Shown here in pieces: positions 1 to 32,153 of a DNA stretch of 64,000 bases (the stretch's first letter is position 1; each line of letters opens with the position of its first letter). A model generated the notes under the pieces. That model searched no databases, was not told the DNA's origin, and saw only the letters and a program-made list of their open reading frames with translations. Source of the DNA: Myxococcota bacterium (lineage in GTDB: Bacteria > Myxococcota_A > UBA9160 > UBA4427); assembly GCA_046583195.1 (NCBI GenBank), contig JAYGCV010000021.1, positions 11,660 through 75,659 on the forward strand, given 5' to 3'. A program made the translations under genes and the position numbers.

Positions 1-1982
1 TGCAGCAGCGCTTCGGCTCCGCGGTCCTGTCGCAGCGCGCCGTAGACCAGCCGACGCAACGGCGCCTTCGCCACAGGCTGCAGCGCCCGCGCCGCATGGT
101 CGGCTTCTGCCCCGAGCTCGTAGGCACCGAGTAGCGCGTAAAAGGCTCCCATCCGATCGAGCGCTTCGAAACGCCGGGCCGGGTCCGCGTGCCCCCGGTC
201 GCGCAGCCACTGGGGATACGCAGCGGGGAGCAGGCCACGATCGATCAACCAACCCGGAGCCTCGCGCAGCACGGCGTCGATTTCGAAGCCGCGACGCAAA
301 TCGAAGGGCACCCCCTCGCTTGCGTAGAAGCGCGCCACGCGCCCCAGGTTTTCGCGATTGCGCTCGCTGTCGCGCAGGTAGAGCGCGTGCCCGGGGCCGC
401 GAAAAATCGGCAGCCAACCGGGAACCCCCTCGAGGTGCGCGGTGGTGTAGATATGCTCGCCGAGCGCAGGAAAGCCGACGCCAAAGAAGACGTCGACTCC
501 GTAGCGATCGAGGGCCTCGAGTGCCGTCTCGCCCGGATCGACCTCGCGGCGATGGGCGATCCGAAAGTAATCGGCGAGGACTTTGCTCGGGTAGTGCTCG
601 GTGCGCCCATCGACGAAGGTCCGAAGCCGCGGCGCGAGTCGGTACCCGAGCAATCCACCCATCGTGTAGCGGTTGTAAAGGTTGCCTTCGAGTGCAGCCT
701 CCTGCAGAAAGCGAATGCCGGGCTCGTAGGTGCCGTGACGCACCCTCGATTCCGAGAAGTAGCCGGACAGCGAATCGGGGAGTCTCGAAAGGCGCGCGCG
801 GTAACCCGGATCGAAGGCCAGGGCGGCCACCAACAAAAGGGCAACCAGGCCCGCTGCCATCGCGGTCCCGCGCCTGCGAGGCGTGAGGCCTTCTTCGGAC
901 TGCGCCGCAAAGCGCAGGAGGAAGAGCAGCGGGAAAATGCCCATCCACAGGAAGCGCACCGAGACCAGAATGGCCACCGCTGACGCCGCGGCCAATCCCA
1001 GGTAGAGCGGGTCGAGGGTCCGCAGGTCGCAAGCTCGGCGACGCCAGGCAAAGCGAGCCACTCCGAAAATCGCCAGCGTGATCGCGGCGGCGTAGAGCCC
1101 ATCCGTGAGCGCCCAGGCAAGATCTCCGACCGGCGCCCCCCCCGCCAGCGCCGACGGCAGCACGAACGGATTGAAGGGAAACCACTCGTCGGCGATGTCC
1201 CAGATCCCGAACTCAGAAGACGAGGAGAAAAAGGTGAGATGCTGGTCGAAGCCACGCGGGTTGAGGAGCCCCGCCCCGATGATCGCCAACCCGGCCAGCG
1301 CCAAACGCTTTGCGCGCCGCCACTGCAGTGGCGCCCCGGGAAGCCGCGCCCACTTCAGGGCCGCGGCGTGCAGCAAGACGCCGAGCAGCGCCGCTACGAC
1401 CAGCGCCGGTGCCAGGCCGTAGAGGGAGTGGAAGTTGGCCCAGAGAAAAGCCACGAAAGCGGCGGCGGCGACGCGGCGCCAGGAGGGCGGGTCGCGGCCT
1501 TCAAAGAGCAGGAGGGTGAGCCCGAGTGTCGCGAGAATCGAAACCAGGTCGGGCCGCATCTGGACGAGGCGCGGCCAGGCGAGCAGCAGGAAAACCGTCG
1601 CCGCCAGCGCTGTCCACGCGGTCGGTGCCCTCGCACGCCGCAGCACAGCCACCGCAGCCAGCACGATCGCGAGGACCGCGACGCCGTGGAGCACGCGCAC
1701 GCCTCCGAGGCCGGTCCCCACGTCCACGGCGTGCATGGCGACCCCGAAGAGCCACTCGTGCTGGACGGGTGCTTCGGCGTGGGCCGTGTGGAGCATCGGG
1801 TCTGCTTCCGGCCACGGCCCTTCGGACGCGTAGGTTTCCCCCGCGCGCGCGTGGAACCAGAAATCGCTGGTGTCAATCGGGCCCGCCGCCACCCACTCGA
1901 CCATCAGCACCGCCGCGAAGAGCGCCCCCCACGCCACAACGCCGACATCGAGCCCGCCATCGCGGGCGCCGAGTGTTCTCAT
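1..1982 (-). CDS. polytopic membrane protein, GT-C-like glycosyltransferase candidate (3' end outside window)
   Basis: Absent from the ORF track because it has no stop inside the window. Reading the minus strand from ATG 1982..1980 gives MRTLGARDGGLDVGVVAWGALFAAVLMVEWVAAGPIDTSDFWFHARAG... I spot-checked codon by codon at 1982-1861 and 1082-1020 and found no stop; no other minus ORF is listed in this frame. The N-terminal ~400 aa are multi-TM (e.g. FLWANFHSLYGLAPALVVAALLGVLL, FLWMGIFPLLFLL) and the C-terminal part is soluble. An acidic D-x-x-D-F-W-F-H loop follows TM1. Track ORFs 189..983+, 245..1255- and 320..886+ here are Arg/Ser/Pro-rich shadows. Confidence 0.6.
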   Translation of the reverse strand, partial: MRTLGARDGGLDVGVVAWGALFAAVLMVEWVAAGPIDTSDFWFHARAGETYASEGPWPEADPMLHTAHAEAPVQHEWLFGVAMHAVDVGTGLGGVRVLHGVAVLAIVLAAVAVLRRARAPTAWTALAATVFLLLAWPRLVQMRPDLVSILATLGLTLLLFEGRDPPSWRRVAAAAFVAFLWANFHSLYGLAPALVVAALLGVLLHAAALKWARLPGAPLQWRRAKRLALAGLAIIGAGLLNPRGFDQHLTFFSSSSEFGIWDIADEWFPFNPFVLPSALAGGAPVGDLAWALTDGLYAAAITLAIFGVARFAWRRRACDLRTLDPLYLGLAAASAVAILVSVRFLWMGIFPLLFLLRFAAQSEEGLTPRRRGTAMAAGLVALLLVAALAFDPGYRARLSRLPDSLSGYFSESRVRHGTYEPGIRFLQEAALEGNLYNRYTMGGLLGYRLAPRLRTFVDGRTEHYPSKVLADYFRIAHRREVDPGETALEALDRYGVDVFFGVGFPALGEHIYTTAHLEGVPGWLPIFRGPGHALYLRDSERNRENLGRVARFYASEGVPFDLRRGFEIDAVLREAPGWLIDRGLLPAAYPQWLRDRGHADPARRFEALDRMGAFYALLGAYELGAEADHAARALQPVAKAPLRRLVYGALRQDRGAEALL

Positions 1983-2000
1983 GCCGGGGATGGTAGCCTG

Positions 2001-4280
2001 ATGACCGCGCGAGAGTCCCGCTCTGCGCTCGCGCCGGGGGGATCGAATACGAGCGTGCGAAATGCGACTTCGCAAGGGGCGGGCGCTCGGATCGGCGCAC
2101 CGCTCGGGCTGTTCCTGCTCTCGTTCGCAGTGCGGAGCCTCCCTTTCCCGACGGTCCGCGTCGGCGATTCCATCCACTTCCTCGGGATGGACGCCTATTA
2201 CCACATGCGCCGGATCGCCTACGGGCTCGAGCGCTTCCCCGAAACCCTCGTCTTCGACCCGTATATCAACTTCCCGGCCGGAGCCACGGCCATCTGGCCC
2301 CCCCTCTTCGACGTGCTCTGCACCTGGCTGGCCTTCCCCTTCCACGCCGCGGGGGGGATCGCCGCCGCGGAGCAGGCGCTCGTCTGGGTGCCGCCGCTCT
2401 TCGGGGCCGGAACCGTCGTCCTCGCCTATTGCCTCGCGCTGCGCTTCCTCGGCCTTTCGGCCGCGCTCTTTAGCGGCGTCTTCCTGGCGCTCTCCTCGGG
2501 CCACGCCTGGTATTCGCAGGTGGGGTTCCTGGACCACCACGCTGCAGTCGCCTTCGCGACCACAGCGCTGCTCTACGCGGGGATGGCGACTGCCCGCGAT
2601 CTCGCTCTCCCGAGCGCGAGGCTCACGCGGAGTGCCCTCGGCCTCGGGGTCGCCCTCGGCGCGAACCTTCTGCTCTGGCCCGGAAGTCTCCTCCACGTCG
2701 GAATCGTGATCGGCGCTCTCGGGGTGTGGGTGCTGGGCCAGCCCCAACCCGCCGCCGCCGAACGCGGTGCGCGCACGCTGGCCCTCGCCTCGCTGGTGGC
2801 GTTGCTCGTCGTTGCACCGTTCTCCTGGTCGAACGATTGGGCGCGCTGGGGAGCCTTTACGCCGACGGTCCTCTCGCGCTTCCAACCCTGGTTTTTTGCA
2901 GTGCTCGCGGTCGGCTTCGCGATTCTCACGCAATGCGCGAAAACGCGATTCGGTCCGCGCGGGAAACCACGCCCGCTGCCGGGGTTGCTCGTCGCGATCG
3001 GTCTTCTCGGGCTGTCTGCCGTCTGCCTGCCGGGCCTTCGCGAGGGCCTCGCCGATGCCTGGCAGTGGTTGGCGAAGGACGAGGCCTTCCAGGCCAGTGT
3101 GCTCGAATCGCGTCCACTCTTCTCGGTGCGCGGCCAGTGGTCGAGCCGTATTGCAGAAGGTCGGCTCTCCTACCTGATCTACCTGCTGCCGGCGACACTT
3201 CTCTACTTCGCTTACGCGGTCCGGAACCGCGAGGACCGCTCCGCCCTGCGTCTGCTGCTCATCTGGACCCTCGTGCTCGCCGCGGTGACCCTGCTCCAGC
3301 GGCGCTTCTTCAACAGCTTCTCGGTCGCACTCTCGTTGGTGATGGGATGGGGGTTCGCGGTGGCCGTGGGTCGGTCGCTCGGCACTCGGGCCAGCAGTCT
3401 GCGACGCATCGGGATCGCGGCGGCGGTGGGCCTCTCTGCGCTCTACCTGCTTTCGCCCATGGAGGCCTCGTTTCGCCCCTCGCTCGACAACCTGCAGCGC
3501 GCCTTCGCCGGCCGGCCGGTGCTAAAGCGAAGCGCTGGGCCCGACTTCGAAGCGCTCTTCGAAACCGCCGCCTGGATCCGCGAGCACACGCCGAGCACCC
3601 GGGGCTACCGCGACGCGTCGCTGCCTCCCGAGTACGGCCTGATCACGCTCCCCGGCATCGGACACCTCTTTGAGTACCGCGCCGAACGCCCCGTGGTCGC
3701 TGACAACTTTGGGGACGACATCGGCATCGAGAACTACGCACTCGTACGTCGGTACTTCTCGTCGCTCTCCCAGGAGGAGGCCGCCGAGATCGCCTCCGAT
3801 CTGCGCGCGCGCTACGTCGTCGCCACGGCTCCCGCTGCGCGCCAGCGTGGGGGGACCGGCATCCCGCTCCTCGAGCGCCTGGCGCACGGGGACGGCCAGG
3901 GCCTCGGCAGCCATCGCCTCGTCTTCGAGGCCTCGCGCCTCGGTGTGAACGCTCGGACCAACCGCCCTCCGCCCAAGGTCTTCGAGCATGTGCGCGGTGC
4001 CCGGGTCGAAGGCCTCGCGCCTGCCCAGCAGAACGTCAGCGCCCGAATCGACGTCGAAACGAATCGCGGTCGGCGCTTTGTCTACCGACAGAGCGTGCGC
4101 AGTGATGACCAGGGTCGGTACCGGCTGCAACTTCCCTACGCCAGCGAAGCGCGAAATGGCGCCTCGAAAACCGGATCGGCGTGGCGAATCGATTCCGGCG
4201 GTGCCTCGCACCCGCTGTCCATTCTCGAAAGCGCCGTGCGCACAGGGGGCGTTGTGCCGGGGCCCGATTTCGGTTCTTGA
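2001..4280 (+). CDS. STT3/AglB-like oligosaccharyltransferase homologue (GT-C), divergent
   Basis: Frame of track ORF 1239..4280. The first 254 codons are junk antisense to the upstream gene, and protein-like sequence begins at ATG 2001 (alternative GTG 2055). The multi-TM half carries FLGMDAYYHMRR (D codon at 2190) and GFLDHH (2532-2540). These resemble the first-loop D-x-x-Y-H-x-R motif and the D-x-H metal-site motif I recall for archaeal AglB/STT3. The soluble C-terminal ~250 aa includes ...AERPVVADNF... downstream of the expected WWDYG position. Confidence 0.75.
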   Translation: MTARESRSALAPGGSNTSVRNATSQGAGARIGAPLGLFLLSFAVRSLPFPTVRVGDSIHFLGMDAYYHMRRIAYGLERFPETLVFDPYINFPAGATAIWPPLFDVLCTWLAFPFHAAGGIAAAEQALVWVPPLFGAGTVVLAYCLALRFLGLSAALFSGVFLALSSGHAWYSQVGFLDHHAAVAFATTALLYAGMATARDLALPSARLTRSALGLGVALGANLLLWPGSLLHVGIVIGALGVWVLGQPQPAAAERGARTLALASLVALLVVAPFSWSNDWARWGAFTPTVLSRFQPWFFAVLAVGFAILTQCAKTRFGPRGKPRPLPGLLVAIGLLGLSAVCLPGLREGLADAWQWLAKDEAFQASVLESRPLFSVRGQWSSRIAEGRLSYLIYLLPATLLYFAYAVRNREDRSALRLLLIWTLVLAAVTLLQRRFFNSFSVALSLVMGWGFAVAVGRSLGTRASSLRRIGIAAAVGLSALYLLSPMEASFRPSLDNLQRAFAGRPVLKRSAGPDFEALFETAAWIREHTPSTRGYRDASLPPEYGLITLPGIGHLFEYRAERPVVADNFGDDIGIENYALVRRYFSSLSQEEAAEIASDLRARYVVATAPAARQRGGTGIPLLERLAHGDGQGLGSHRLVFEASRLGVNARTNRPPPKVFEHVRGARVEGLAPAQQNVSARIDVETNRGRRFVYRQSVRSDDQGRYRLQLPYASEARNGASKTGSAWRIDSGGASHPLSILESAVRTGGVVPGPDFGS

Positions 4281-12672: not shown

Positions 12673-14310
12673 ATGTCCAGCAACGCACAGCGCCCCCCGA
12701 TTCTCATCGGCCTGGTCCTACCCCTGGCCGTCGGTGCGCTCGTCCGTTGCGTCGGAATTCGAGGGCAGGTTCTCACCGACGACGAACTCCACACGGTCCA
12801 CGCGGCGCTCTCGATGCCGCTCTCGCAGATCTTCCGGACGTGGACCTTTGGCGGTGCCGACTACAGCGTCCCGCTCACCGCCCTGCATCGCGCCCTGATG
12901 GACTTCGGCATGGTGTTCACGGAACTCGGCTTTCGCTGGCCGCCACTCCTGGCCGGACTGCTCGCGGTGGTACTGCTGCCTCGATTCGCCCGGCACCGGA
13001 TCGGCTCCCGGGCCGCGCTGGCGCTCGCCTGGCTGATCGCATGCTCGCCAATGCTCGTTGCCTACAGTCGAATCATTCGCCCCTACATGGTGACGGGCCT
13101 GTGCGTCGGCGTGGCGGCGCTGCTCTTTGACCGCTTCCGGCAGGGGCGCTCGCGCTGGGACGCGGCCGGCTTCGTGCTTGCGTCGGTGCTCGCGATCTAC
13201 AGCCATCTCGGAGCCGCCCCCGCCATCGCCGGGATGCTGCTCTTTGGCGCGGCGCACGCGCGCCAGAAGGCCCGGGACGAACTCGCGATCGCCGGGCTGG
13301 CCGCCATCACCTTCCTACTCGCGGCCCTGCTCGTGGCCCCGGGCCTCGACTCGATCATCGAAGTCGTCCGCACGACGCGAGACGGCCACTGGCCCTCGGG
13401 GTCCGTGTGGTCCGATACCGGGCGCCTGCTCGTGGGGACACCCTCCGTCGGCGTTTCGCTCCTCGCTGGGGCGATCTGGCTTCGGGGCCTGGTGTGGCTG
13501 ATCCGAGACCAACGGGATTTCGCCGGTTTGCTCGTGTCGACCCTCGCGGCCCAGGCGATCGGCTTGTTGCTGCTGTCGCCGGATCGGCTGGAAGAACGCC
13601 TGGTGCTCACGCGCTACCTCGTGGTCGTTCTGCCGCTGGCCCTCGTTCCGCTCGCGGTGGGGACGATGCATCCCTGGTGGCCAGGGGCACCGACGTGGGG
13701 TCGCCGGGGCGAAGCGTGCGTGGCCGCCGGGCTACTGGTCCTCCTGGTTGCGAGCGGACCCCTGCGCCTTGACCCGAAGGCCATGGGATCCTTCGCCCAC
13801 GCGCCTGCATCCCTCGATTTCGTGGGCATTGGAAATCGCATCGCGAAATCACAGCTACCCGATTTCTACCGCGAGCTCGCGCGCTCACCAGAGCCCGCGC
13901 CGCTGATCGAGTACCCGTGGCAGAACCTCTCCTACCACGTCTTTGACGCGTATCAGCGCCACCACCACCAGCCGCTGCAGATCGCGAGTGTCCTCGACCG
14001 GAGCGATGAATTGCGGATTGCCCTCCGCAGCCGCGTCGAGCCCCAGCCCGAGGCGATGCTTCGCAGCCGCGCCCGCCACATCGTGGTGCACCTCGATCTG
14101 CGCGGCGAAGCACTGCGGATCGAGAGCAGCGACCCGAGCTTCGAAAAATGGCTGCGCGCCCGACGAAATCTGTGGACCCCGTTGCAGAGAGCCGGCACCG
14201 GCATGGCTCGGCGTCTCGAGGGCGAATGGGGCGAACCCGATTACCGCGACGAACACATCGCTGCCTGGGACCTGGAGCGGATTCGCGCCACTTCGGGGGG
14301 CATGCCGTGA
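12673..14310 (+). CDS. polytopic membrane protein, GT-C-like glycosyltransferase candidate
   Basis: Frame of ORF 12481..14310 with ATG 12673 (GTG 12670 adjacent). TM1 is followed by GQVLTDDELHTVHAA, an acidic loop-1 motif. At least 9 further hydrophobic segments follow. The soluble C-terminal ~170 aa includes EYPWQNLSYHVFDAYQRHHHQPL. Confidence 0.55.
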   Translation: MSSNAQRPPILIGLVLPLAVGALVRCVGIRGQVLTDDELHTVHAALSMPLSQIFRTWTFGGADYSVPLTALHRALMDFGMVFTELGFRWPPLLAGLLAVVLLPRFARHRIGSRAALALAWLIACSPMLVAYSRIIRPYMVTGLCVGVAALLFDRFRQGRSRWDAAGFVLASVLAIYSHLGAAPAIAGMLLFGAAHARQKARDELAIAGLAAITFLLAALLVAPGLDSIIEVVRTTRDGHWPSGSVWSDTGRLLVGTPSVGVSLLAGAIWLRGLVWLIRDQRDFAGLLVSTLAAQAIGLLLLSPDRLEERLVLTRYLVVVLPLALVPLAVGTMHPWWPGAPTWGRRGEACVAAGLLVLLVASGPLRLDPKAMGSFAHAPASLDFVGIGNRIAKSQLPDFYRELARSPEPAPLIEYPWQNLSYHVFDAYQRHHHQPLQIASVLDRSDELRIALRSRVEPQPEAMLRSRARHIVVHLDLRGEALRIESSDPSFEKWLRARRNLWTPLQRAGTGMARRLEGEWGEPDYRDEHIAAWDLERIRATSGGMP

Positions 14311-15815
14311 CGCGCGACCTCCTCGCGAAAAAAACAGAGACCCGGCTGACAGGCTGGGTCGCAATCGCCGCCTTCTGGTTCTTCGGCGTCTTTAGCCACG
14401 GCCACTTCATGGGTTCGGATGAAGTCGCGGTCTTCGAAATGACGCGATCCCTCGCCGAAGAGGGGAACCTGAGCGTCCCGGAGATGCAGCACACCGCGAT
14501 CGGAATCGACGGTCGACGCCACAGTTTCTTCAGTCCCGGGCAATCGGTCCTGGCACTTCCCTTCTACCACGCCGGCCGCCTCGCCGAGCGCTGGCTGCCG
14601 CTGGATGCTCAGCGCGTATTGCGCGGCCCGCCCAGCGGCTACGGCAACTACACCTTCGGAGGCGATCTCTCCATTGCCTTCGCCAGCCTCTTTTCGACGC
14701 TGGCCGGCGGCATCCTGATGGCGGTGTTCTTTCGCTTCGAACGGCGCCTCGGGGCCTCGCGCCAGAGCGCCCTCAAAGCGACCGCGCTGGTCGCCTCTTC
14801 GACCTACGTGCTGATGCTCTCGACCTACTTCCTGCGGCACGTCGCCGAGGCAGCTTGCCTGCTCGGCGCGATCCTCTTCGTGTTTCGGTACGCCCACGGC
14901 AGCGGCCCGCGCGATCTTCTGGCGGCTTCGGCGCTGGCCTCGGCGGCCTTCCTGCTCCGGGTCCCGGCAGGCTTCGCGGCCCCGGTCCTCGCCGGCTACA
15001 TCGGCTGGGCCATCTGGCTGCGGAGCGATGGGCTGCGCCGCCATCGAGACGCCGCTCGCGCCGTACTCTGCGTGCTGCTGCCGCTGGCGCTGGCGCTGGC
15101 TGCCTTTGGCTTCGTGAACCAACTGCGCTGGGGAAACCCCTTCGGCTCCCCGATGGTCGACCAGTGGTCGCGACTCGGAAACCCGATCCAGATTGGGCTG
15201 CGCGGCTTCCTCCTGAGTCCCGGCGCGAGCCTCTTCGTCTACTCGCCGCTGCTCCTGCTCTTGCCGTTCACCTTTCCGGTCTTGTGGCGGAGTTGGCGCG
15301 CGGAGGCCATCGCCTTTGGGGCACTCTGTCTCTCGCTCTTGCTCATCTACTCGAAATTCGACGGCTGGGAGGGACTCTGGTCGGCGCCCGGGCCGCGCTA
15401 CCTCTTCTTCGCCACGCCCCTGCTCCTGCTGTCTCTGGGACCGTGGCTCGACCGGCCCAGTTCGAAGTTGCGAAGCGGCACACTCGTCGTGCTTGCAGCG
15501 CTTGGCTTCTTCGTGCAACTCGTTTCGACCGTGGTGCATTGGGGATCGGTTCCCGCGCTGGCGAACTACGAAGGTTTTGAAACCGGCTGGGAATTCCTCT
15601 TCGTGGTGGACCGCGCACCGGTGGTGGAAATGGCTCGTCTCTTCTTTTCCGGGGGGCCCTACGACCCCTGGTTGATCCGCCTGGGAGAGGGCTGGCTCGG
15701 GGTGAATGGACGCCCGGGCCTGGCCTTGGCGCTCTTCGCAGCGTGGGCCGCCGGTCTCGGGGCGTTGGTGGTGGCGATCCGTCGAGAATGCCAACGCCTG
15801 GACTCGGTGGACTGA
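14307..15815 (+). CDS. polytopic membrane protein, GT-C (GT39/PMT_2-like) glycosyltransferase candidate
   Basis: Frame of ORF 14148..15815. GTG 14307 overlaps the upstream TGA (GTGA, 14307-14310). WVAIAAFWFFGVFSHGHFMGSDEVAVFEMTRSL is TM1 plus an S-D-E loop motif as in ArnT/PMT-like enzymes. The remainder is multi-TM. Confidence 0.6.
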   Translation: MTRDLLAKKTETRLTGWVAIAAFWFFGVFSHGHFMGSDEVAVFEMTRSLAEEGNLSVPEMQHTAIGIDGRRHSFFSPGQSVLALPFYHAGRLAERWLPLDAQRVLRGPPSGYGNYTFGGDLSIAFASLFSTLAGGILMAVFFRFERRLGASRQSALKATALVASSTYVLMLSTYFLRHVAEAACLLGAILFVFRYAHGSGPRDLLAASALASAAFLLRVPAGFAAPVLAGYIGWAIWLRSDGLRRHRDAARAVLCVLLPLALALAAFGFVNQLRWGNPFGSPMVDQWSRLGNPIQIGLRGFLLSPGASLFVYSPLLLLLPFTFPVLWRSWRAEAIAFGALCLSLLLIYSKFDGWEGLWSAPGPRYLFFATPLLLLSLGPWLDRPSSKLRSGTLVVLAALGFFVQLVSTVVHWGSVPALANYEGFETGWEFLFVVDRAPVVEMARLFFSGGPYDPWLIRLGEGWLGVNGRPGLALALFAAWAAGLGALVVAIRRECQRLDSVD

Positions 15816-15818
15816 GCC

Positions 15819-17252
15819 GTGGCGCTGCGAAGGATCGCGCTGGGCATCGTCGCTTTGGTGGCGGCACTTTCGATCGCCTACGCCGTGGCGCTGCGCGTTC
15901 CGAGTCCGGTCTCGCTGAACTACGTCGAGGGCTTCGCGCAGATCGACGCGCAGCGCGTTGCGGCGGGAAGCGCCCTCTACCGGAACCCGGCCTCCCCGCC
16001 GTGGACGTTGCACGTCTACACGCCCCTCTACACTTTTGCGGTCGCCGCGATCACCAGCGACTTCGGGAGTTATGCACCGGGTAGACTCCTTTCTCTTGGC
16101 GCGCTGCTCGCCACCGCGCTGCTCATGGGTGCCAGTGGAGCGCGGAGAGCGGGCTGGGTCGCCTGGATCATCGCGGGCCTCTACCTGTCACAGCCGCTGC
16201 TCACCCAATGGGGCGCAGTGGTGCGTCCAGACAACCTCGCGGTCTTCTTCTCCGCCGTCGGCGTCGTCTGCGTCGAACGCCTTTCGGGGCTGCGCGGTCT
16301 ATTGCTGGCGGCCGTCTTCTTCCTGCTGGCGCTGGCCACAAAGCAGAGCGTCGGTCTGGGGCTGTTGGCGGCGATCCTCTTCCTCCTCTTGCAGGCACCC
16401 AGGCGCGCCCTGGTCCTCGTCGCCCTGGTGGCAGTGGGCGCCCTCTCAACGACCCTTGCACTCGAAGCGCTCTCTGGGAACTGGTTCATCTTCCATACCT
16501 GGACCGCGAACCTCGCCCCCTTCTCGCTGGAAAAGAGCCTGCACCTCGGCGGGATCTTTCTCCGCGAACACGTTCCCCTCGTTGCGGCCGCCTTCGCGGT
16601 GCTGATCGCCTGCGGATTGCAGCGCCGCCTCTCGATCCACGCCCTCTGGTTCGCTGGGGCAGCGGTCTCGACGGTCGCCTCGGGACGGATTGGGGCCGAC
16701 ACCAATTATTTCCTCGAGAGCCTGGCGGCGGCGGGTTTCCTGCTGGCGAACGAGTGGCCGGTCCTCCGGGAGCGTTTTCGCGCGCGGGCCCCGGGCTGGC
16801 TCGAAACGGCGCTGCTCACCGTCGCCATCGCGATGGCGCTGTTCCAGGCAAGGACCCTGCACGCGAATTACGCCTGGATCGAGGGCGCCGAAACGCGCTT
16901 TCTCGAGGCCCGGGATCGGATGCGGGAGAAACCGGGAGCCATTCTCTCCGACGACGCTGGACTGCTCGTGTCTCTCGATCGACCGCTCGTCTATCGACCG
17001 TTCGCAATGACCCAACTCGTCTACGCCGGCGACTTCGATCCCACGCAACTCGTGCAGATGCTCGAGTCGGGCGAGTTCGCCTTCGTCGTCTTCGAAGCGG
17101 TCCCAGGCCGGGGGCCATCGCCCGCACGCTACACTGCGGAAATGCGCGCAGCGCTCGCACGGAACTACCGAAGCGAAGGTCGCTATCGCACCTTTTCCAA
17201 CTTCGAGGTCTACGCTCCGCGCAGGCCCGGGAGCCTGGATCCGGCCCTGTGA
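15819..17252 (+). CDS. polytopic membrane protein, GT-C-like (family unassigned)
   Basis: GTG 15819, 3 nt after the upstream stop. About 10-11 hydrophobic segments, then a soluble C-terminal ~120 aa (LSDDAGLLVSLDRPLVYRPFAMTQLVYAGDFDPTQLV...). No family motif recognised with confidence. Assignment rests on architecture and context. Confidence 0.5.
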   Translation: MALRRIALGIVALVAALSIAYAVALRVPSPVSLNYVEGFAQIDAQRVAAGSALYRNPASPPWTLHVYTPLYTFAVAAITSDFGSYAPGRLLSLGALLATALLMGASGARRAGWVAWIIAGLYLSQPLLTQWGAVVRPDNLAVFFSAVGVVCVERLSGLRGLLLAAVFFLLALATKQSVGLGLLAAILFLLLQAPRRALVLVALVAVGALSTTLALEALSGNWFIFHTWTANLAPFSLEKSLHLGGIFLREHVPLVAAAFAVLIACGLQRRLSIHALWFAGAAVSTVASGRIGADTNYFLESLAAAGFLLANEWPVLRERFRARAPGWLETALLTVAIAMALFQARTLHANYAWIEGAETRFLEARDRMREKPGAILSDDAGLLVSLDRPLVYRPFAMTQLVYAGDFDPTQLVQMLESGEFAFVVFEAVPGRGPSPARYTAEMRAALARNYRSEGRYRTFSNFEVYAPRRPGSLDPAL

Positions 17253-21162: not shown

Positions 21163-22998
<1,836 letters not shown>

Positions 22999-23038
22999 GA
23001 CTGCTTCACTCCCGACCGGGGCTGCATGCCCCGTTCCT

Positions 23039-24376
23039 TCAATCGCTCTTCTTCGACGCCCTGCGCCGGGCCGCCCAACCCTCGATCTCTCGCTGCCGGG
23101 CGCGCGCAACCACCAGCGAATCCGCTGAGGCATCCTTTGTCACCGTTGAACCGGCGGCCACGAAACTGCCGTCTCCCAGGGACACCGGTGCAATCAGGTT
23201 GGCGTTGCAGCCGATGAAGACACCCCGACCGACCTTCGTCCGGTGCTTCGAAATGCCGTCGTAGTTCACGGTGATCGACCCACAGCCGAAGCTCGACCCC
23301 TCTCCGACGTCGGCGTCGCCGATGTACGAAAGGTGGTCGGCCTTTACGAAGGGCCCGAGCACGCTGTTCTTGATCTCGACATAGTTGCCGACGCGAACGC
23401 CCTGCATCAGGTGGGTCCCCGGGCGCAGGTGCGCACTCGGGCCGACCACTACGTCGTCGTCGAGGCGACTCGATTCGATGGTGCAGTGGGGCTTCAGATG
23501 AACCCCGCGGCCGATCACGCTGGCTCCCTTGATGATGCAACCGGGCTCGATCAGGGTGTCGGCACCGATTTCGACATCGACGTCGATGTAGCTGCTCTCC
23601 GGGTCCACCAGCGTAACGCCGCCCTGCATCAGGCGAAGAGCGGTGCGGCGGCGCAGAACCCGGGCGGCCTCTGCCAATTCGGCGCGCGTGTTGACCCCCA
23701 GACATTCCTCCGAATCCAAGAGGGTGAGCGCCTCGACGCGGTGCCCGCCTTCGACCGCGAAACCGACGAGGTCGGTCAGGTAGCGTTCGCCCTGGGCATT
23801 GTGGTCGTCGAGGGAGGCCAGGCCCTCGCGCAGCAGGCGGGCGTCGAAGAGATAGACGCCGGTGTTTCCTTCCTGGATCTCGAGTTCCTCGGGCGTCGCG
23901 TCGGTGACTTCGACGATCTTCGACACCGCGCCGGTGGCGTCGCGAACAACGCGCCCCGGGAGCGGCTCGGGCGAAGTCAGCATTGCCAGCGCCGCGCCGG
24001 TGCGCGCCTTGAAATCACGCAGTTCGAGCAGGGTCTCGCAGCGCAGCAGCGGCGTGTCGCCGTAGAGCACCAGCACGTCGCCTTCGTGATCCTCGAGCTT
24101 CGGCTGGGCCTCCTGCACCGCGTGGCCGGTTCCCTTCTGCTCGGCCTGGAGCACGAAGTCGGCGCGGCCGACGAAGGCGGCCCGAACCTCGTCGGCGTCA
24201 AACCCGACCACCACCAGAAGTCGCGAGGGCGCTAGCGCTTCGGCCTCTGACAGCACGTGCCCGAGCATCGGACGCCCGCACAACTCGTGCAGCACCTTCG
24301 CGCGAGCAGACTTCATGCGCGTCCCCTGGCCCGCGGCCAGAATGACGACTGCAATGTCCCTTGCGCTTTGCGCCAT
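23039..24376 (-). CDS. glmU: bifunctional UDP-N-acetylglucosamine diphosphorylase / glucosamine-1-phosphate N-acetyltransferase
   Basis: VVILAAGQGTRMKS pyrophosphorylase motif, and C-terminal left-handed beta-helix hexapeptide repeats. ATG 24376 is preceded by GAGGAGG (alternative ATG 24394). It lies upstream of glmS, as in the classic glmUS arrangement. Confidence 0.95.
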   Translation of the reverse strand: MAQSARDIAVVILAAGQGTRMKSARAKVLHELCGRPMLGHVLSEAEALAPSRLLVVVGFDADEVRAAFVGRADFVLQAEQKGTGHAVQEAQPKLEDHEGDVLVLYGDTPLLRCETLLELRDFKARTGAALAMLTSPEPLPGRVVRDATGAVSKIVEVTDATPEELEIQEGNTGVYLFDARLLREGLASLDDHNAQGERYLTDLVGFAVEGGHRVEALTLLDSEECLGVNTRAELAEAARVLRRRTALRLMQGGVTLVDPESSYIDVDVEIGADTLIEPGCIIKGASVIGRGVHLKPHCTIESSRLDDDVVVGPSAHLRPGTHLMQGVRVGNYVEIKNSVLGPFVKADHLSYIGDADVGEGSSFGCGSITVNYDGISKHRTKVGRGVFIGCNANLIAPVSLGDGSFVAAGSTVTKDASADSLVVARARQREIEGWAARRRASKKSD

Positions 24377-24616
24377 CGGCCTCCTCGCGGGCAATCCTGT
24401 GAAAACGCGCCGTCGAACCGGAAGGATGGCGCACAGCGGCTCGAATCGGTAACGATCCGCTCCGCTCCCCGCGCTGACCCCCCGGGGAGGAGCGACTCAC
24501 CCTACAGTGAGTGTCCCCGACGGCGTGTATCGTGTCACGGGTGCTCGCGACCGCGATGCGCGACGAACCGGACGCGCCCCCATTCTGCTCATCGCCTGCA
24601 CAACCCGGAGCCTTCG

Positions 24617-28156: not shown

Positions 28157-29317
28157 TTGGCCGCGACTGATTTCCTGAAACTCGACACCACCCACTTCGA
28201 CGCCGAGGAAATCCTCGTTCGGGATTCCGTGGCTGCGTGGGTGTCGAAGGAGTTCATGCCCCGGCTGCAGGAGCACGTGCGTCAGGACGGCTCCTTCCCC
28301 ATGGAACTCGTCCCCCAGATGGCCGAACTCGGCATGTTCGGAGCCAACCTCGAGGGCTACGGCTGCGCGGGGATGAACAACGTGGCCTACGGACTGTTGA
28401 TGCAGGAACTCGAGCGCGGCGATTCCGGGCTCCGCTCCTTCGCCTCGGTGCAGGGCTCGCTGTGCATGTATCCGATCCACGCCTACGGCTCCGAAGAGCA
28501 GAAGCAACGCTGGCTCCCGGGGATGGCTGCGGGCGAATTAATTGGCTGCTTCGGCCTCACCGAACCCGATTTCGGCTCATTCGTCACCGGGATGCGGGCG
28601 CGCGCCGAGCGCAAGGGCGACCACTGGGTCCTCAACGGGACCAAGCGCTGGATCACCAACGGGTCGATCGCGCATCTCGCCATCATCTGGGCAACGACCG
28701 AGGAGGGCGTCCGGGGCTTCGTCGTGGAAACCGACAGCGACGGCTTCGAGAGTCGCGATATCAAGGGAAAATTCTCGCTGCGCGCATCGGTCACCTCCGA
28801 ACTCTTCCTACAGGACGTCAAAGTCCCCGAAGCCAACCGCCTCCCCGATGCCGCCGGCTTCCGGGGACCGCTCTCGTGCCTGACCCAGGCCCGTTACGGG
28901 ATTTCCTGGGGCGCCCTCGGCGCAGCCATGGCGTGTTACGAAGAAGCGCTCGACTACGCGAAGGAGCGCGAGGTGCAGGGCGGGCCGCTGGCGACGAAAC
29001 AGTTGGTGCAAGAAAAACTCGTCTTCATGCTCACCGAGATCACCAAGGGGCAGCTGCTATCGCTCCAACTCGGGCGCCTCAAGGACCGTGGCGAGATGCA
29101 TCCGACGATGGTGTCGATGGCAAAGCGCAACAACGTCGACATCGCGCTGCGGATCGCGCGCGAGGCCCGGGACATCCTCGGCGCCAACGGCATCGTCGAC
29201 GACTACCAGTCGATGCGCCACATGCTGAACCTCGAAACGGTGCGAACCTACGAGGGCACCCACGACATCCACACGCTGATCATCGGAGAGCACATCACGG
29301 GGATGCGAGCCCTGTAG
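28157..29317 (+). CDS. gcdH: glutaryl-CoA dehydrogenase
   Basis: TTG start. It is near-colinear with GCDH as I remember it: GYGCAG...AYGLL..ELERGDSG.RS, YGSEEQKQRWLP, GCFGLTEPD.GS, GKFSLRAS, LGRLKD, NLETVRTYEGTHDIHTLIIGEHITG. Confidence 0.9.
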   Translation: MAATDFLKLDTTHFDAEEILVRDSVAAWVSKEFMPRLQEHVRQDGSFPMELVPQMAELGMFGANLEGYGCAGMNNVAYGLLMQELERGDSGLRSFASVQGSLCMYPIHAYGSEEQKQRWLPGMAAGELIGCFGLTEPDFGSFVTGMRARAERKGDHWVLNGTKRWITNGSIAHLAIIWATTEEGVRGFVVETDSDGFESRDIKGKFSLRASVTSELFLQDVKVPEANRLPDAAGFRGPLSCLTQARYGISWGALGAAMACYEEALDYAKEREVQGGPLATKQLVQEKLVFMLTEITKGQLLSLQLGRLKDRGEMHPTMVSMAKRNNVDIALRIAREARDILGANGIVDDYQSMRHMLNLETVRTYEGTHDIHTLIIGEHITGMRAL

Positions 29318-29327
29318 CGATACGACC

Positions 29328-32153
29328 TTGAGCACCCTACTCGGTCTCATCTTTTTTCTCTCGGGCGCTTCGGCACTACTCTTCGAAACGCTGTGGTTCT
29401 TCCAGACGGGGCTGGCGCTCGGCAATTCGATCTGGGCTTCGAGCCTGGTGCTGGCCAGCTTCATGGCAGGGCTGGCCCTCGGCAACGGAATCGCCAGTCG
29501 CTTCGGCCATTGGATCCGGCGCCCGGTCGCGGTCTACGCCGGGCTCGAGGTGGTGATCGGCGTTTCGGGGGCCGGGCTCGTTTTCTTGCTGCCAGAGTTG
29601 ACCCCGCTGCTCGCCCCGATCCTCGGTCCACTCGTCGACGAGCCGACCCTGCTCAATTCGCTGCGGCTCGGGATCGGATTCCTCTTGATGCTGGTTCCCG
29701 CCACCGCGATGGGCGTCACCCTGCCGATCCTGGTGGCCGCGGTCTATGGCCGGGACCAGCGCTTCGGCCACGTCCTCGGGCGGCTCTACGGCTGGAACAC
29801 GCTGGGTGCGGTGGCGGGGGCCCTGTTGGGCGATGCCCTCCTGATCGGATGGTTCGGGATCGAAGGCTCTGCGCTCTTCGCCGCCGCGCTGAACGGGCTG
29901 GTCGCCGTGCTGGCGCTCTTCCTGTCGCCGCACCTTGGCGCCAGCCCCATCGAGAACGTCACCCCCTGGCGAAGGCGCATCTCGCGTCGAGGCTGGGCCC
30001 TGCTCGGCGCGGCCTTTCTCGCCGGGGGAGGGCTGCTGGCCCTCGAAGTGATCTGGTTCCGCTTCCTGCTGTTCTTCATTCCTGGCACGAGTTTCACCTT
30101 CGCGGTGATGCTCGCGGTCGTGCTCGCCGGGATCGGGCTCGGTGGCTTTGCCGGTTCGGCCCTGCTTTCACGTTGGCCCGAGGCGTTCCGGTTCTCGGGG
30201 ACCGTCGCGCTACTCGCGGGTGGCCTTGCGATCTGGCTCTACACCGGATTCGAGATCTTCCTGCCGGAGTCGGGGCGCATGCTGAAATCCGGCTTCGGGG
30301 ACATCCTCAGCCTGGCGCTTCCGCTGATGCTTCCCGTGGCCCTGTGTTCCGGCGCACTCTTTCCGTGGCTCGGCGAGGCCCTCCACCGCGAAATCGGGGG
30401 AGAAACGCGGTCCGCGGGCCTCCTCACCCTTGCCAATACAACCGGCGCCGCCATCGGTTCGCTGCTGGGCGGCTTCGTGCTGCTCCCCACCATCGGGGTC
30501 GAGGCTTCGCTGCTGGTTCTGGCGGGCGGGTACATCGGGACCGCCGCGCTGGCCTTCGCAGGCGGAGTGCGCCCACAAAAGCGCCTGGCGCGGTGGAGCA
30601 CCGCGGCCCTCGGCGCGGCGCTGCTTGCCAGCCTGGCCCTGTTTCCGCTGGGCCAGGCCCAGGATCGTTTCCTCGCCCGCGCGCTATCCGACTACGTCCC
30701 CCCCGAAAAAGTCATCTCGGTGCGCGAGGGCCTCACCGAAACCCTCGTCCACACCCGCCAGGAACTCTTCGGCGAAGCGCTCCACTACCGCCTGATCACC
30801 AACGGACACTCGATGTCGGCGACTTCGCTCGGTTCGCATCGCTACATGAAGCTCTTCGTCTATCTGCCCGTAGCGGTACACAAAGCGCCTCGCACTGCGC
30901 TGCTGATCAGCTTCGGCGTGGGCGGAACCGCGCGCGCTCTTGCGGATACCGACGAACTCGAGAGCATCGACATCGTAGACATCTCGCGGGATATCCTCGA
31001 GCTTTCGAGACTGGTGGCCTGGGATGCAAGCGAATCCACCGGGCGAGGGCGGACCCAATCGCCGCTCGACGATCCCCGCACCCAGGTCCATATCGAGGAT
31101 GGCCGATTTTTTCTGCAGACCACCGACCGGCACTTCGACATCATCACCGGCGAGCCGCCGCCGCCGAAGCTTGCCGGAATCGTCAATCTCTACACCCGCG
31201 AATACTTCGAGTTGATCCGAGAGCGTCTCGCGCCCGGCGGTGTCACCAGCTACTGGGTCCCCGTGCACTCGCTCCTGATCGACGACACCAAATCGATCCT
31301 CCGCGCCTTCTGCGATGTGTTCGCGGATTGCACGCTGTGGACCGGATCTGGAAGGGATTGGGTGCTGCTCGGTACCAAGGAGGGTCGGTCGAAGGTCGAC
31401 CGCGAACGCTTCGGACTCCAGTGGAGGAAGCCCTCCGTGGCGCGCGAATTGCGGGCGGTGGGCTTCGAAGAGCCGGGGCAGATCGGTGCTCTCTTTCTCG
31501 CCGATCACGACCAGATCGCCGCGATGACCGCCGACGTGCTGCCCCTCGTCGACGACTTTCCGAAGCGCCTCTCGAACCGGGTCGGCGGAAGCACCTACGA
31601 GGCCTGGATGAACCCAGTGAATACCCGGAAGCGCTTCATCAAGAGCCGCGTTCTGCGCGAGAGTTGGCCGCCGGAACTGATCGCCGAGAGCCTCCCCTAT
31701 TTCGACCAGCAGGACGAGATCAATCGCATTTTCGGCTACAAGGGCGGCACCAAACGGCCGGGTGTCCAGGGGAACTGGCTCCCGCGAATTCACGACCTCC
31801 TCACCGAAACCACGCTGCGCACCTTGCCCCTCTGGTTGATGGACAGCAGCGTCGACATCCAGCGCCTGGCCCGAATTGCCGCGCGCAAGGGCAGCACGAC
31901 CGGCCCGGTGCACTACCACCTGGGCGCCGGTGCCTTCGTCACCGGAAACTGGCGCGAGGCCTCTCGCCACTTCGGTCGCACGCTGGCACTCCAAGCCGAC
32001 CCCAATGTGCTCCCGTATCACACCTACGCTCTGTGCCGCGCGGGTTTCTCGGAACGCGGGCTTCGCCAACTCGCGGCCGTGCGCGCAGAGGCGGAATTTT
32101 CGGAAAATGCCGCACTCCTCTCGCTTCTCGAGAACATCTGCACGACTCCCTGA
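29328..32153 (+). CDS. fused polytopic membrane / spermidine-synthase-like (class I methyltransferase fold) protein
   Basis: TTG 29328, 10 nt after the gcdH stop. The first ~470 aa form many TM helices (FFLSGASALLFETLWF is typical of this fusion family). Then comes LLISFGVGGTARAL...IDIVDIS...IEDGRFFL...FDIITGEPPPP, a polyamine aminopropyltransferase-like Rossmann motif. A ~300-aa helical tail follows. The overlapping 1196-aa ORF 29393..32983 is a shadow frame. Confidence 0.75.
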   Translation: MSTLLGLIFFLSGASALLFETLWFFQTGLALGNSIWASSLVLASFMAGLALGNGIASRFGHWIRRPVAVYAGLEVVIGVSGAGLVFLLPELTPLLAPILGPLVDEPTLLNSLRLGIGFLLMLVPATAMGVTLPILVAAVYGRDQRFGHVLGRLYGWNTLGAVAGALLGDALLIGWFGIEGSALFAAALNGLVAVLALFLSPHLGASPIENVTPWRRRISRRGWALLGAAFLAGGGLLALEVIWFRFLLFFIPGTSFTFAVMLAVVLAGIGLGGFAGSALLSRWPEAFRFSGTVALLAGGLAIWLYTGFEIFLPESGRMLKSGFGDILSLALPLMLPVALCSGALFPWLGEALHREIGGETRSAGLLTLANTTGAAIGSLLGGFVLLPTIGVEASLLVLAGGYIGTAALAFAGGVRPQKRLARWSTAALGAALLASLALFPLGQAQDRFLARALSDYVPPEKVISVREGLTETLVHTRQELFGEALHYRLITNGHSMSATSLGSHRYMKLFVYLPVAVHKAPRTALLISFGVGGTARALADTDELESIDIVDISRDILELSRLVAWDASESTGRGRTQSPLDDPRTQVHIEDGRFFLQTTDRHFDIITGEPPPPKLAGIVNLYTREYFELIRERLAPGGVTSYWVPVHSLLIDDTKSILRAFCDVFADCTLWTGSGRDWVLLGTKEGRSKVDRERFGLQWRKPSVARELRAVGFEEPGQIGALFLADHDQIAAMTADVLPLVDDFPKRLSNRVGGSTYEAWMNPVNTRKRFIKSRVLRESWPPELIAESLPYFDQQDEINRIFGYKGGTKRPGVQGNWLPRIHDLLTETTLRTLPLWLMDSSVDIQRLARIAARKGSTTGPVHYHLGAGAFVTGNWREASRHFGRTLALQADPNVLPYHTYALCRAGFSERGLRQLAAVRAEAEFSENAALLSLLENICTTP

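Follow-up and report, generated by a model that had tools for sequence, protein, structure and literature searches.

To our knowledge, every characterised oligosaccharyltransferase (OST), from bacteria to humans, reads its sequon through a WWDYG motif and a DK or MI motif. Here, we analysed a stretch of 64,000 nucleotides from an uncultured marine Myxococcota bacterium (GenBank assembly GCA_046583195.1, contig JAYGCV010000021.1, positions 11,660 to 75,659 of the forward strand; the window in what follows), in which a plus-strand gene that by translation starts with the ATG at position 2001 encodes a 759-amino-acid STT3/AglB homologue. We found that this STT3-like protein is an AglB-L-type STT3 homologue whose pocket for the +2 Ser/Thr of the sequon (WWD, DK/MI and the residue corresponding to Q571 of the Archaeoglobus fulgidus enzyme) has been dismantled, which means that some other mode of acceptor recognition must be in use. 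Metal, catalytic and phosphate-site residues are kept. Judged by comparison with its sequence relatives, the protein appears to stand at the extreme of a large bacterial branch of the AglB family, which is uncharacterised and has a remodelled acceptor site.

The closest described enzyme is AglB-L of A. fulgidus (AfAglB-L; O29867; structures 3WAJ, 5GMY and 7E9S), which has in common with the STT3-like protein a GT-C core of about 13 transmembrane helices and a C-terminal domain with AglB_L1, as well as the same metal ligands, the same Glu in external loop 5 (EL5) and the same phosphate-site Arg. The Myxococcota protein differs in having LPGIG for WWDYG, G571 for Q571, I98 for H81 and no DK motif, and also in its bacterial host and its neighbours, which are GT-C and Thr-type sulfatase-fold genes. 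The best curated family model is TIGR04154, the archaeosortase A-associated OST; our protein is bacterial and scores under its cut-off, and the occurrence of PEP-CTERM (exosortase-type) proteins beside one relative, at locus L065, links the two by analogy only. Campylobacter PglB is, like our protein, a single-subunit bacterial enzyme of the STT3 family that is periplasmic and follows the same catalytic logic, but it is far more distant (template-modelling (TM) score about 0.47-0.49, 10-11% identity), has WWDYG, DGGK and an MI motif, and requires D/E-x-N-x-S/T. The descent of our protein from the AglB-L-like lineage and not from that of PglB fits the work of Lombard 2016 (PMC4973528), in which a few bacterial STT3 homologues were nested among euryarchaeal ones and at least two transfers from archaea to bacteria were inferred; the occurrence of AglB-like genes in bacteria is thus nothing new in itself. 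The C-mannosyltransferase DPY19 (7ZLI; TM score 0.57) has an STT3-like GT-C fold with Trp as the acceptor, and thus shows that such a fold can change its acceptor chemistry; it uses dolichyl-phosphate mannose (Dol-P-Man), recognises WxxW, has none of the C-terminal domains of AglB and is much less similar to our protein than AglB is. In Haloferax volcanii, the OST AglB is followed by AglS, a Dol-P-Man-dependent GT-C mannosyltransferase (PMC3871713). By analogy, the gene module described below may also combine an STT3-type enzyme with a GT-C enzyme that uses polyprenol-phosphate sugars and finishes the glycan outside the cytoplasm; our island, however, holds four PMT_2-type genes, at least one more GT-C gene and three sulfatase-fold genes, and the likeness lies in the pairing.

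An earlier reading of the window, made from the letters alone (the original prediction), had called the gene a bacterial STT3/AglB homologue, and Pfam, NCBIfam, phmmer, profile and Foldseek matches bear this out. The Pfam model PF02516 (STT3) scored 41.5 bits against a gathering threshold of 24.5 and covers only residues 60-191, and PF18079 (AglB_L1), a domain otherwise typical of 'long' archaeal AglB, matched with its full profile at residues 666-752 (67.1 bits against a cut-off of 23.6, E = 1.5e-18). The AglB core model PF22627 came just under its 27-bit threshold (26.2 bits, E = 1.1e-5), and its match at residues 535-609 spans the very segment in which WWDYG is missing. TIGR04154 (archaeo_STT3) matched residues 36-608 with E = 5e-94, but its 316.2 bits fall below the curated cut-off of 450, which leaves the protein outside that family. 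A phmmer comparison with AfAglB-L gave E = 3.6e-20 at 19-20% identity, and among solved structures the only sequence matches were the three A. fulgidus AglB paralogues. The profile of the family aligned to AfAglB-L over its full length with E = 1.5e-99 (human STT3A, 5.5e-12; yeast STT3, 6e-9). An AlphaFold2 model of the protein, built from an alignment of 89 sequences (predicted local distance difference test (pLDDT) 92.6, predicted TM score (pTM) 0.93), superposed best on AfAglB-L (7E9S; Foldseek E = 3.8e-32, TM score 0.79); the top 16 Foldseek matches in the PDB were all AglB and STT3, and eukaryotic STT3 (about 1e-15), DPY19 (7e-10), PglB (5e-8) and ArnT (8e-7) matched more weakly. The profile and Foldseek matches to AfAglB-L rule out a GT-C family other than STT3. 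With neither WWDYG nor DK/MI found and the TIGR04154 cut-off missed, we place the protein in the STT3 superfamily, as a homologue from the AglB-L lineage, rather than among the canonical OSTs.

In the HMMER alignment to AfAglB-L, which is free of gaps from Y545-G546 to I574-G575 and pairs EYGLITLPGIGHLFEYRAERPVVADNFGDDIG with TYGVISWWDYGHWIEAVAHRMPIANPFQAGIG, L-P-G-I-G-H lies under W550-W-D-Y-G-H555. The colinearity of LPGIG with WWDYG and the retention of the Gly-His, both read from the sequence in the original prediction, are thereby confirmed. Two short AfAglB paralogues, in which the motif is WWDYGN, align likewise. At the pentamer the model forms a strand (residues 546-548) followed by a helix (residues 551-561), with a pLDDT of 96-98. 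A genuine WWDYG elsewhere in the C-terminal domain was ruled out: a regular-expression search for WWD[YWFN]G found no match in the 759 residues, which contain no WW dipeptide and, after residue 500, a single Trp (W525). The same expression had no match in 98 of the 100 closest relatives; the archaeal-type outlier P0099 carries a WWDxG-type motif. Of the peptide-site residues described for AfAglB, namely D552, Q571 and K618 (PMC8342417), the first two are replaced by G552 and G571 and the third has no equivalent. Residues N569, F570, G571, D572, D573 and G575 hardly vary within the family and are specific to it; the segment to which they belong lies at the presumed position of the DGGK motif and contains no Lys. 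In the segment that aligns after the RYVV strand (residues 609-628), neither D-x-x-K nor M-x-x-I was found, and L627 is the sole conserved residue. Compared with the archaeal sequences, the family has gaps in this DK region, and the loop of residues 611-620 has a pLDDT of 71, so that L627 is at most a tentative spatial counterpart of DK/MI.

Does the protein retain what a transferase needs? MDAYYHMRR and LDHH, which had been likened to the AglB metal-site motifs, lie exactly where they were read and align to the AfAglB ligands. In AfAglB, D47, D161 and H163 are metal ligands, E360 is the Glu of the TIXE motif, and R426 belongs to the phosphate site (Taguchi et al. 2021, PMC8342417). D64, Y67, D86, D178, H179, H180, E369, R435, G554 and H555 are invariant in the 89-sequence alignment, the mean column identity of which is only 28%, and F363, Q364, V367, S370 and L373 are at least 90% conserved, giving an EL5 pattern of FQxxVxESxPL. 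Of 236 sequences, 219 have all six of D64/D178/H179/H180/E369/R435, and the others are mostly fragments. From this conservation we infer that the protein is a catalytically competent transferase. The original prediction had also considered an inactive scaffold, that is, a pseudo-enzyme organising the GT-C enzymes of the island. The lack of WWDYG, which PglB and Stt3 cannot do without, and the location among many GT-C genes would suit such a role, but pseudo-enzymes normally lose exactly the metal, catalytic and phosphate residues that are invariant here, and many family members lie outside GT-C islands; we hold this explanation to be very improbable.

Is the loss of WWDYG peculiar to this gene? 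The absence of the two Trp and the Asp stands, but the peculiarity does not, as the motif is degenerate throughout the bacterial family. A word-indexed search yielded 100 clusters, labelled simply as proteins of Myxococcota or 'Deltaproteobacteria' metagenome-assembled genomes (MAGs). When 1.84 billion representatives were scanned exhaustively with HMMER, 2683 matched at E <= 1e-3, 509 of them at E <= 1e-30, and a scan of one genome per GTDB species gave 58 loci, mostly in Myxococcota, with a few in Planctomycetota, Binatia and 'Spirochaetales' bins. The family thus comprises hundreds of clusters, mostly from uncultured Myxococcota, with up to three STT3-like paralogues in some MAGs. Database labels call its members only 'STT3 domain-containing' or 'hypothetical', and no account of a bacterial STT3 family without WWDYG came up in a literature search, which was incomplete and so does not prove that none exists.

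The family pentamer can be written x-W-x-x-G. Trp occurs at position 1 in about 1 of 229 members and at position 2 in 198 (86%), Asp at position 3 in 38 (17%), and Gly at position 5 in 228 of the 229, followed at position 6 by His in 227. In a neighbour-joining tree on Kimura distances, rooted on archaeal-type sequences, the members nearest the root keep WD (WWDLG, FWDLG, YWDIG), and our protein falls within a contiguous clade of 16 leaves, all without the second Trp, with the pentamers LPG[IV]G (P0001, P0002, P0004 and P0006), LSGNG (four times), RSGSG, PSGIG and PLNAG; MPGVG occurs in P0003 and LPAVG in P0005. Its clade would accordingly represent the extreme end of a family-wide degeneracy of the motif; given the simple tree method, the order of the losses is provisional. 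The only positions that co-vary with the loss of the second Trp in this clade are R147L and F579Y, and no compensating pocket residue was found among them. Paralogues within one MAG differ in their pentamers, and the same sets (LWTHG/FWTHG, AWGDG and PWGFG/PWGYG) recur across MAGs, as at L021/L027/L043 in one MAG, at L019/L024/L029 in another and at L013/L034. This pattern suggests paralogue-specific acceptor sites. Since the pentamer is conserved within sublineages and the paralogue pentamers recur across MAGs, the variation looks like diversified specificity rather than neutral decay.

Based on the loss of the Ser/Thr pocket and the retention of the catalytic residues, we propose, with a probability of roughly 45%, that the protein is an active transferase of lipid-linked glycans to a protein acceptor, with relaxed or different recognition and no reading of a +2 Ser/Thr. 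In such a scheme, a gene of the AglB-L lineage would have been acquired by Myxococcota from archaea; its product would, as in AglB, use D64, D178, H180, E369 and R435 to bind a divalent metal and a glycan linked to polyprenyl-(di)phosphate, and would carry out the transfer at the periplasmic side of the inner membrane. Most probably the acceptor would still be a protein, secreted or periplasmic, whose sequon is relaxed or different; the retained D64/E369 pair makes a side-chain amide likely. A protein acceptor is favoured by this pair, by the EL5 clamp FQxxVxESxPL, by the GT-C protein with a tetratricopeptide-repeat (TPR) tail in the island and by the PEP-CTERM proteins at L065. Neighbouring periplasmic GT-C enzymes could extend the glycan from polyprenol-phosphate sugars, and the Thr-type enzymes of alkaline-phosphatase fold could add or remove phospho-substituents. 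Of the originally predicted difference in acceptor specificity, the changed acceptor site is thus borne out, and the change of specificity itself is a reasonable interpretation of it.

Several points weigh against this proposal. Mutations of WWDYG reportedly abolish the activity of PglB and of yeast Stt3, in work attributed to Wacker (2002) and to Yan and Lennarz (2002), and an enzyme without WWDYG needs a compensating mode of acceptor binding, none of which was identified. The phosphate-site residue H81 of AfAglB is I98 in our protein. No gene for an initiating phosphoglycosyltransferase, for cytoplasmic glycosyltransferases or for a flippase, as needed for the assembly of a lipid-linked glycan, was found in the window. 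Sulfatase-fold or PMT_2-like neighbours accompany the STT3-like gene at only 19 of 58 loci, and relatives of one subclade have LptF/G or an MsbA-like ABC transporter beside them, which could point to a lipid acceptor instead. Finally, all family members come from MAGs or metagenomes, and the scan of one genome per GTDB species found no cultured genome among them.

A more conservative alternative would be an ordinary N-x-S/T OST in which substitute residues, such as the NFGDD.G block or Y559/R563, read the +2 Ser/Thr, and in which the lack of WWDYG would not matter for function. The fold and all catalytic residues are indeed AglB-like, the conserved family-specific residues Y559, R563, N569, F570, G571, D572 and D573 adjoin the pentamer, and basal members keep WWDLG or FWDLG. 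We nevertheless consider this alternative quite unlikely: WWD, Q571 and the Lys of the DK motif are absent all together, the pentamer varies widely by sublineage, which is unexpected for a pocket that reads one fixed hydroxyl, and WWDYG is essentially universal in characterised OSTs of the three domains (PMC8342417).

The STT3-like gene was predicted to stand at the head of an island of GT-C genes (Table 1). Its membership of the island is borne out by the neighbouring gene calls and their domain matches, but the head position is not, as the island runs upstream into the divergent gene for a 748-amino-acid GT-C protein. The conserved island comprises at least six GT-C genes (the STT3-like gene, four of PMT_2 type and the 748-residue one) and three sulfatase-fold genes, and two further membrane genes are suspected to be GT-C. 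It keeps its synteny in relatives, with 58% protein identity at L005 and 49% at L063.

Table 1. Coordinates of the STT3-like gene, its motifs and its neighbours (window positions unless a locus is named; aa, amino acids)
Feature	Position	Strand	Remarks
748-aa membrane protein, GT-C with C-terminal TPR-like part	1..1982	-	divergent; cut by window start; AlphaFold2, Foldseek
STT3/AglB-like GT-C gene	2001..4280	+	759 aa; about 13 transmembrane helices and C-terminal periplasmic domain
First DXD-type motif, G62-M-D64-A-Y-Y-H-M-R-R	2184..2213	+	aligns with G-N-D47; D64 = AfAglB D47, metal ligand
MDAYYHMRR	2187..2213	+	aa 63-71
Second DXD motif, L177-D178-H179-H180 (LDHH)	2529..2540	+	aa 177-180; = AfAglB D161-H162-H163
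EL5 TIXE/SVSE-type motif, S366-V-L-E369	3096..3107	+	aligns with T-I-A-E360; E369 = AfAglB E360
R435 in QRRF	3303..3305	+	= AfAglB R426, phosphate site
LPGIG	3648..3662	+	aa 550-554
L550-P-G-I-G-H555	3648..3665	+	colinear with WWDYGH; Ser/Thr-pocket residues absent; HMMER alignment
ERPVVADNF	3684..3710	+	aa 562-570
D568-N-F-G-D-D-I-G575	3702..3725	+	position of DGGK motif and AfAglB Q571; alignment
Loop and short helix, aa 609-628	3825..3884	+	site of AglB DK motif (D611...K618...M622); alignment
AglB_L1 peripheral beta domain, aa 666-752	3996..4256	+	PF18079; HMMER stretch to AfAglB-L 771-864
PMT_2-type GT-C glycosyltransferase, 681 aa	4327..6372	+	
PMT_2-type GT-C glycosyltransferase, 544 aa	6409..8043	+	
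Secreted 'sulfatase'-fold protein, 467 aa	8040..9443	-	T-V-P-S-H for C/S-x-P-x-R
Secreted 'sulfatase'-fold protein, 500 aa	9433..10935	-	T-A-P-S-H
Membrane-anchored protein with weak sulfatase-fold domain, 540 aa	10965..12587	+	
PMT_2-type GT-C glycosyltransferase, 545 aa	12673..14310	+	
PMT/PMT_2-like GT-C	14307..15815	+	LA_3751/3752 family, 1.8e-15; GTG start inferred, overlaps previous stop
Polytopic membrane protein	15819..17252	+	no family match; last island gene
MFS_SpdSyn fusion	29280..32153	+	25 kb off
MFS_SpdSyn fusion	L063:2846-5914		4 kb upstream
MFS_SpdSyn fusion	L065:6931-10011		immediately upstream, overlapping

Pfam and NCBIfam gave no match for three genes of the island, coding for proteins of 748, 550 and 478 amino acids, nor for unassigned neighbours in relatives. 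The 748-residue protein, present at full length as L001:1470-3713(-) (P0237), has an invariant D40-x-W42-x-H44 after its first transmembrane helix, and its family in Myxococcota numbers at least 155 clusters. Its model (pLDDT 92.8) matched STT3, PglB and AftA best in Foldseek, followed by TPR proteins, and we take the protein on the strength of this model to be an unannotated GT-C with a TPR tail. Upstream of it, outside the window, relatives have a minus-strand gene for a polytopic membrane protein of 550 amino acids (L002:415-2064(-), L063:5903-7531(-)). It shows a weak relationship to a tandem pair of proteins, each about 720 amino acids long, encoded in a Planctomycetota bin (L066:15699-20011) after the STT3-like, sulfatase-fold and PMT_2 genes. 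One of the pair has a faint Alg9-like (GT22) match, and the 550-residue and 720-residue proteins may be GT-C enzymes that have so far escaped annotation. The rest of the window carries housekeeping genes, including those for UvrD, GlmS, GlmU, HflX, FabH, MutS2 and Fur, and a scan of this remainder found no PEP-CTERM or exosortase genes. GlmS and GlmU, which serve the synthesis of UDP-N-acetylglucosamine, are encoded at 21163-24496(-), just past the island after the UvrD/PcrA helicase gene; this proximity may be coincidental.

In all nine aligned partner 'sulfatases', including homologues at L063, L065 and L066, the nucleophile position is Thr (T-x-P-S-H), and none of the nine has the formylglycine motif C/S-x-P-x-R; none of the sulfatase-fold genes reached an NCBIfam cut-off. 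The Thr-type partners are thus probably phosphodiesterases or phosphotransferases rather than sulfatases, and presumably enzymes of phosphoryl transfer, as others of the alkaline-phosphatase superfamily are. The third sulfatase-fold gene encodes N-terminal transmembrane segments and has a weak C-terminal sulfatase match (E = 4.5e-6). This architecture resembles EptA, LtaS and OpgB, and the gene is kept at L005 and L063.

The STT3-like gene with PMT_2 and/or sulfatase-fold neighbours recurs from basal Planctomycetota members up to our gene. In a six-frame search with hidden Markov models within 10 kb of the 58 loci, sulfatase-fold genes were found at 12, PMT_2-like genes at 11 and either of the two at 19, the last figure being a lower bound given the weak PMT_2 model. 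In its most compact recurring form, the module consists of the STT3-like gene and PMT_2, as at L064, where the former is followed by PMT_2 only; the Planctomycetota locus L066, with the pentamer WWDLG, has STT3-like, sulfatase-fold and PMT_2 genes in that order. At L065, a one-strand operon starts with two PEP-CTERM genes, two sulfatase-fold genes, a fusion of a major facilitator superfamily (MFS) protein with spermidine synthase, and the STT3-like gene (P0019, pentamer PSGIG), and continues with a sulfatase-fold gene, a gene of no known function, a GT2 gene, a methyltransferase gene and two further sulfatase-fold genes. The two PEP-CTERM proteins (L065:1919-2731 and 3056-3874) are paralogous, rich in Thr and Gly and have two N-x-S/T sites each; they are candidate acceptor substrates. 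The fusion, of about 1000 amino acids (NCBIfam MFS_SpdSyn), recurs close to STT3-like genes.

These neighbourhoods bear on another possibility, namely that the acceptor is not a protein. The enzyme would then be a ligase to lipid, lipopolysaccharide or polysaccharide, or a hydrolase that frees periplasmic oligosaccharides for decoration by the neighbours. Such a role would agree with the loss of the whole peptide and Ser/Thr site, with the Thr nucleophile in all partner 'sulfatases', as in the phosphotransferases of that fold, and with the LptF/G and MsbA-like ABC transporter genes beside one subclade. The PMT_2 and sulfatase-fold neighbours resemble the ArnT/EptA pairing on lipid A and the decoration of periplasmic glucans of OpgB type. 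OSTs including AfAglB also hydrolyse lipid-linked oligosaccharide intrinsically (PMC8342417). However, the EL5 segment, which is the peptide clamp in OSTs, is very strongly conserved and the D64/E369 pair persists; proteins are suggested by the GT-C with its TPR tail and by the PEP-CTERM neighbours; and the LptF/G linkage is limited to one subclade and may be plain synteny. Furthermore, we know of no STT3-fold enzyme with a non-protein acceptor. We therefore judge a non-protein acceptor unlikely, though not far-fetched.

Should the proposed transfer to protein without reading of a +2 Ser/Thr be true, the family would show how the STT3 scaffold changes its acceptor specificity; it could reveal a new type of bacterial glycoconjugate in abundant marine Myxococcota and could give glyco-engineers an OST free of the N-x-S/T restriction. 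A wider claim is possible but somewhat doubtful: a large AglB-derived family of periplasmic en-bloc glycan transferases in uncultured Myxococcota and a few Planctomycetota and Binatia may have dropped the reading of N-x-S/T entirely, with paralogue pentamers for different targets and, in the island described here, about eight GT-C and three phosphotransferase-like enzymes, which would amount to sequon-independent protein glycosylation or to the first STT3-fold ligase of glycans to a non-protein acceptor. In Haloferax, Asn-498 is modified by an unidentified, non-AglB oligosaccharyltransferase (PMC3871713), and the WWDYG-less family bears on the question of such enzymes.

The identical 759-residue product has been called publicly on five independent metagenome contigs (ENA, JGI, Logan, NCBI). 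The open reading frame listed at 1239-4280(+) is overlong: in a high-GC region free of stops, 254 codons of open STT3 frame precede the true ATG. At a GC content of about 68%, long spurious open reading frames arise antisense to genes and 5' of true starts, e.g. at 245-1255 and 1239-4280, and a choice of genes by frame length alone mis-calls strands and neighbours in the window and in related high-GC loci. An alternative start of the STT3-like gene is the in-frame GTG at 2055 (V19), still 5' of the first transmembrane helix, and residues 1-30 have low pLDDT in the AlphaFold2 model. Between the annotated starts of this gene and its divergent neighbour lie only 18 bp (1983-2000), too few for two promoters.

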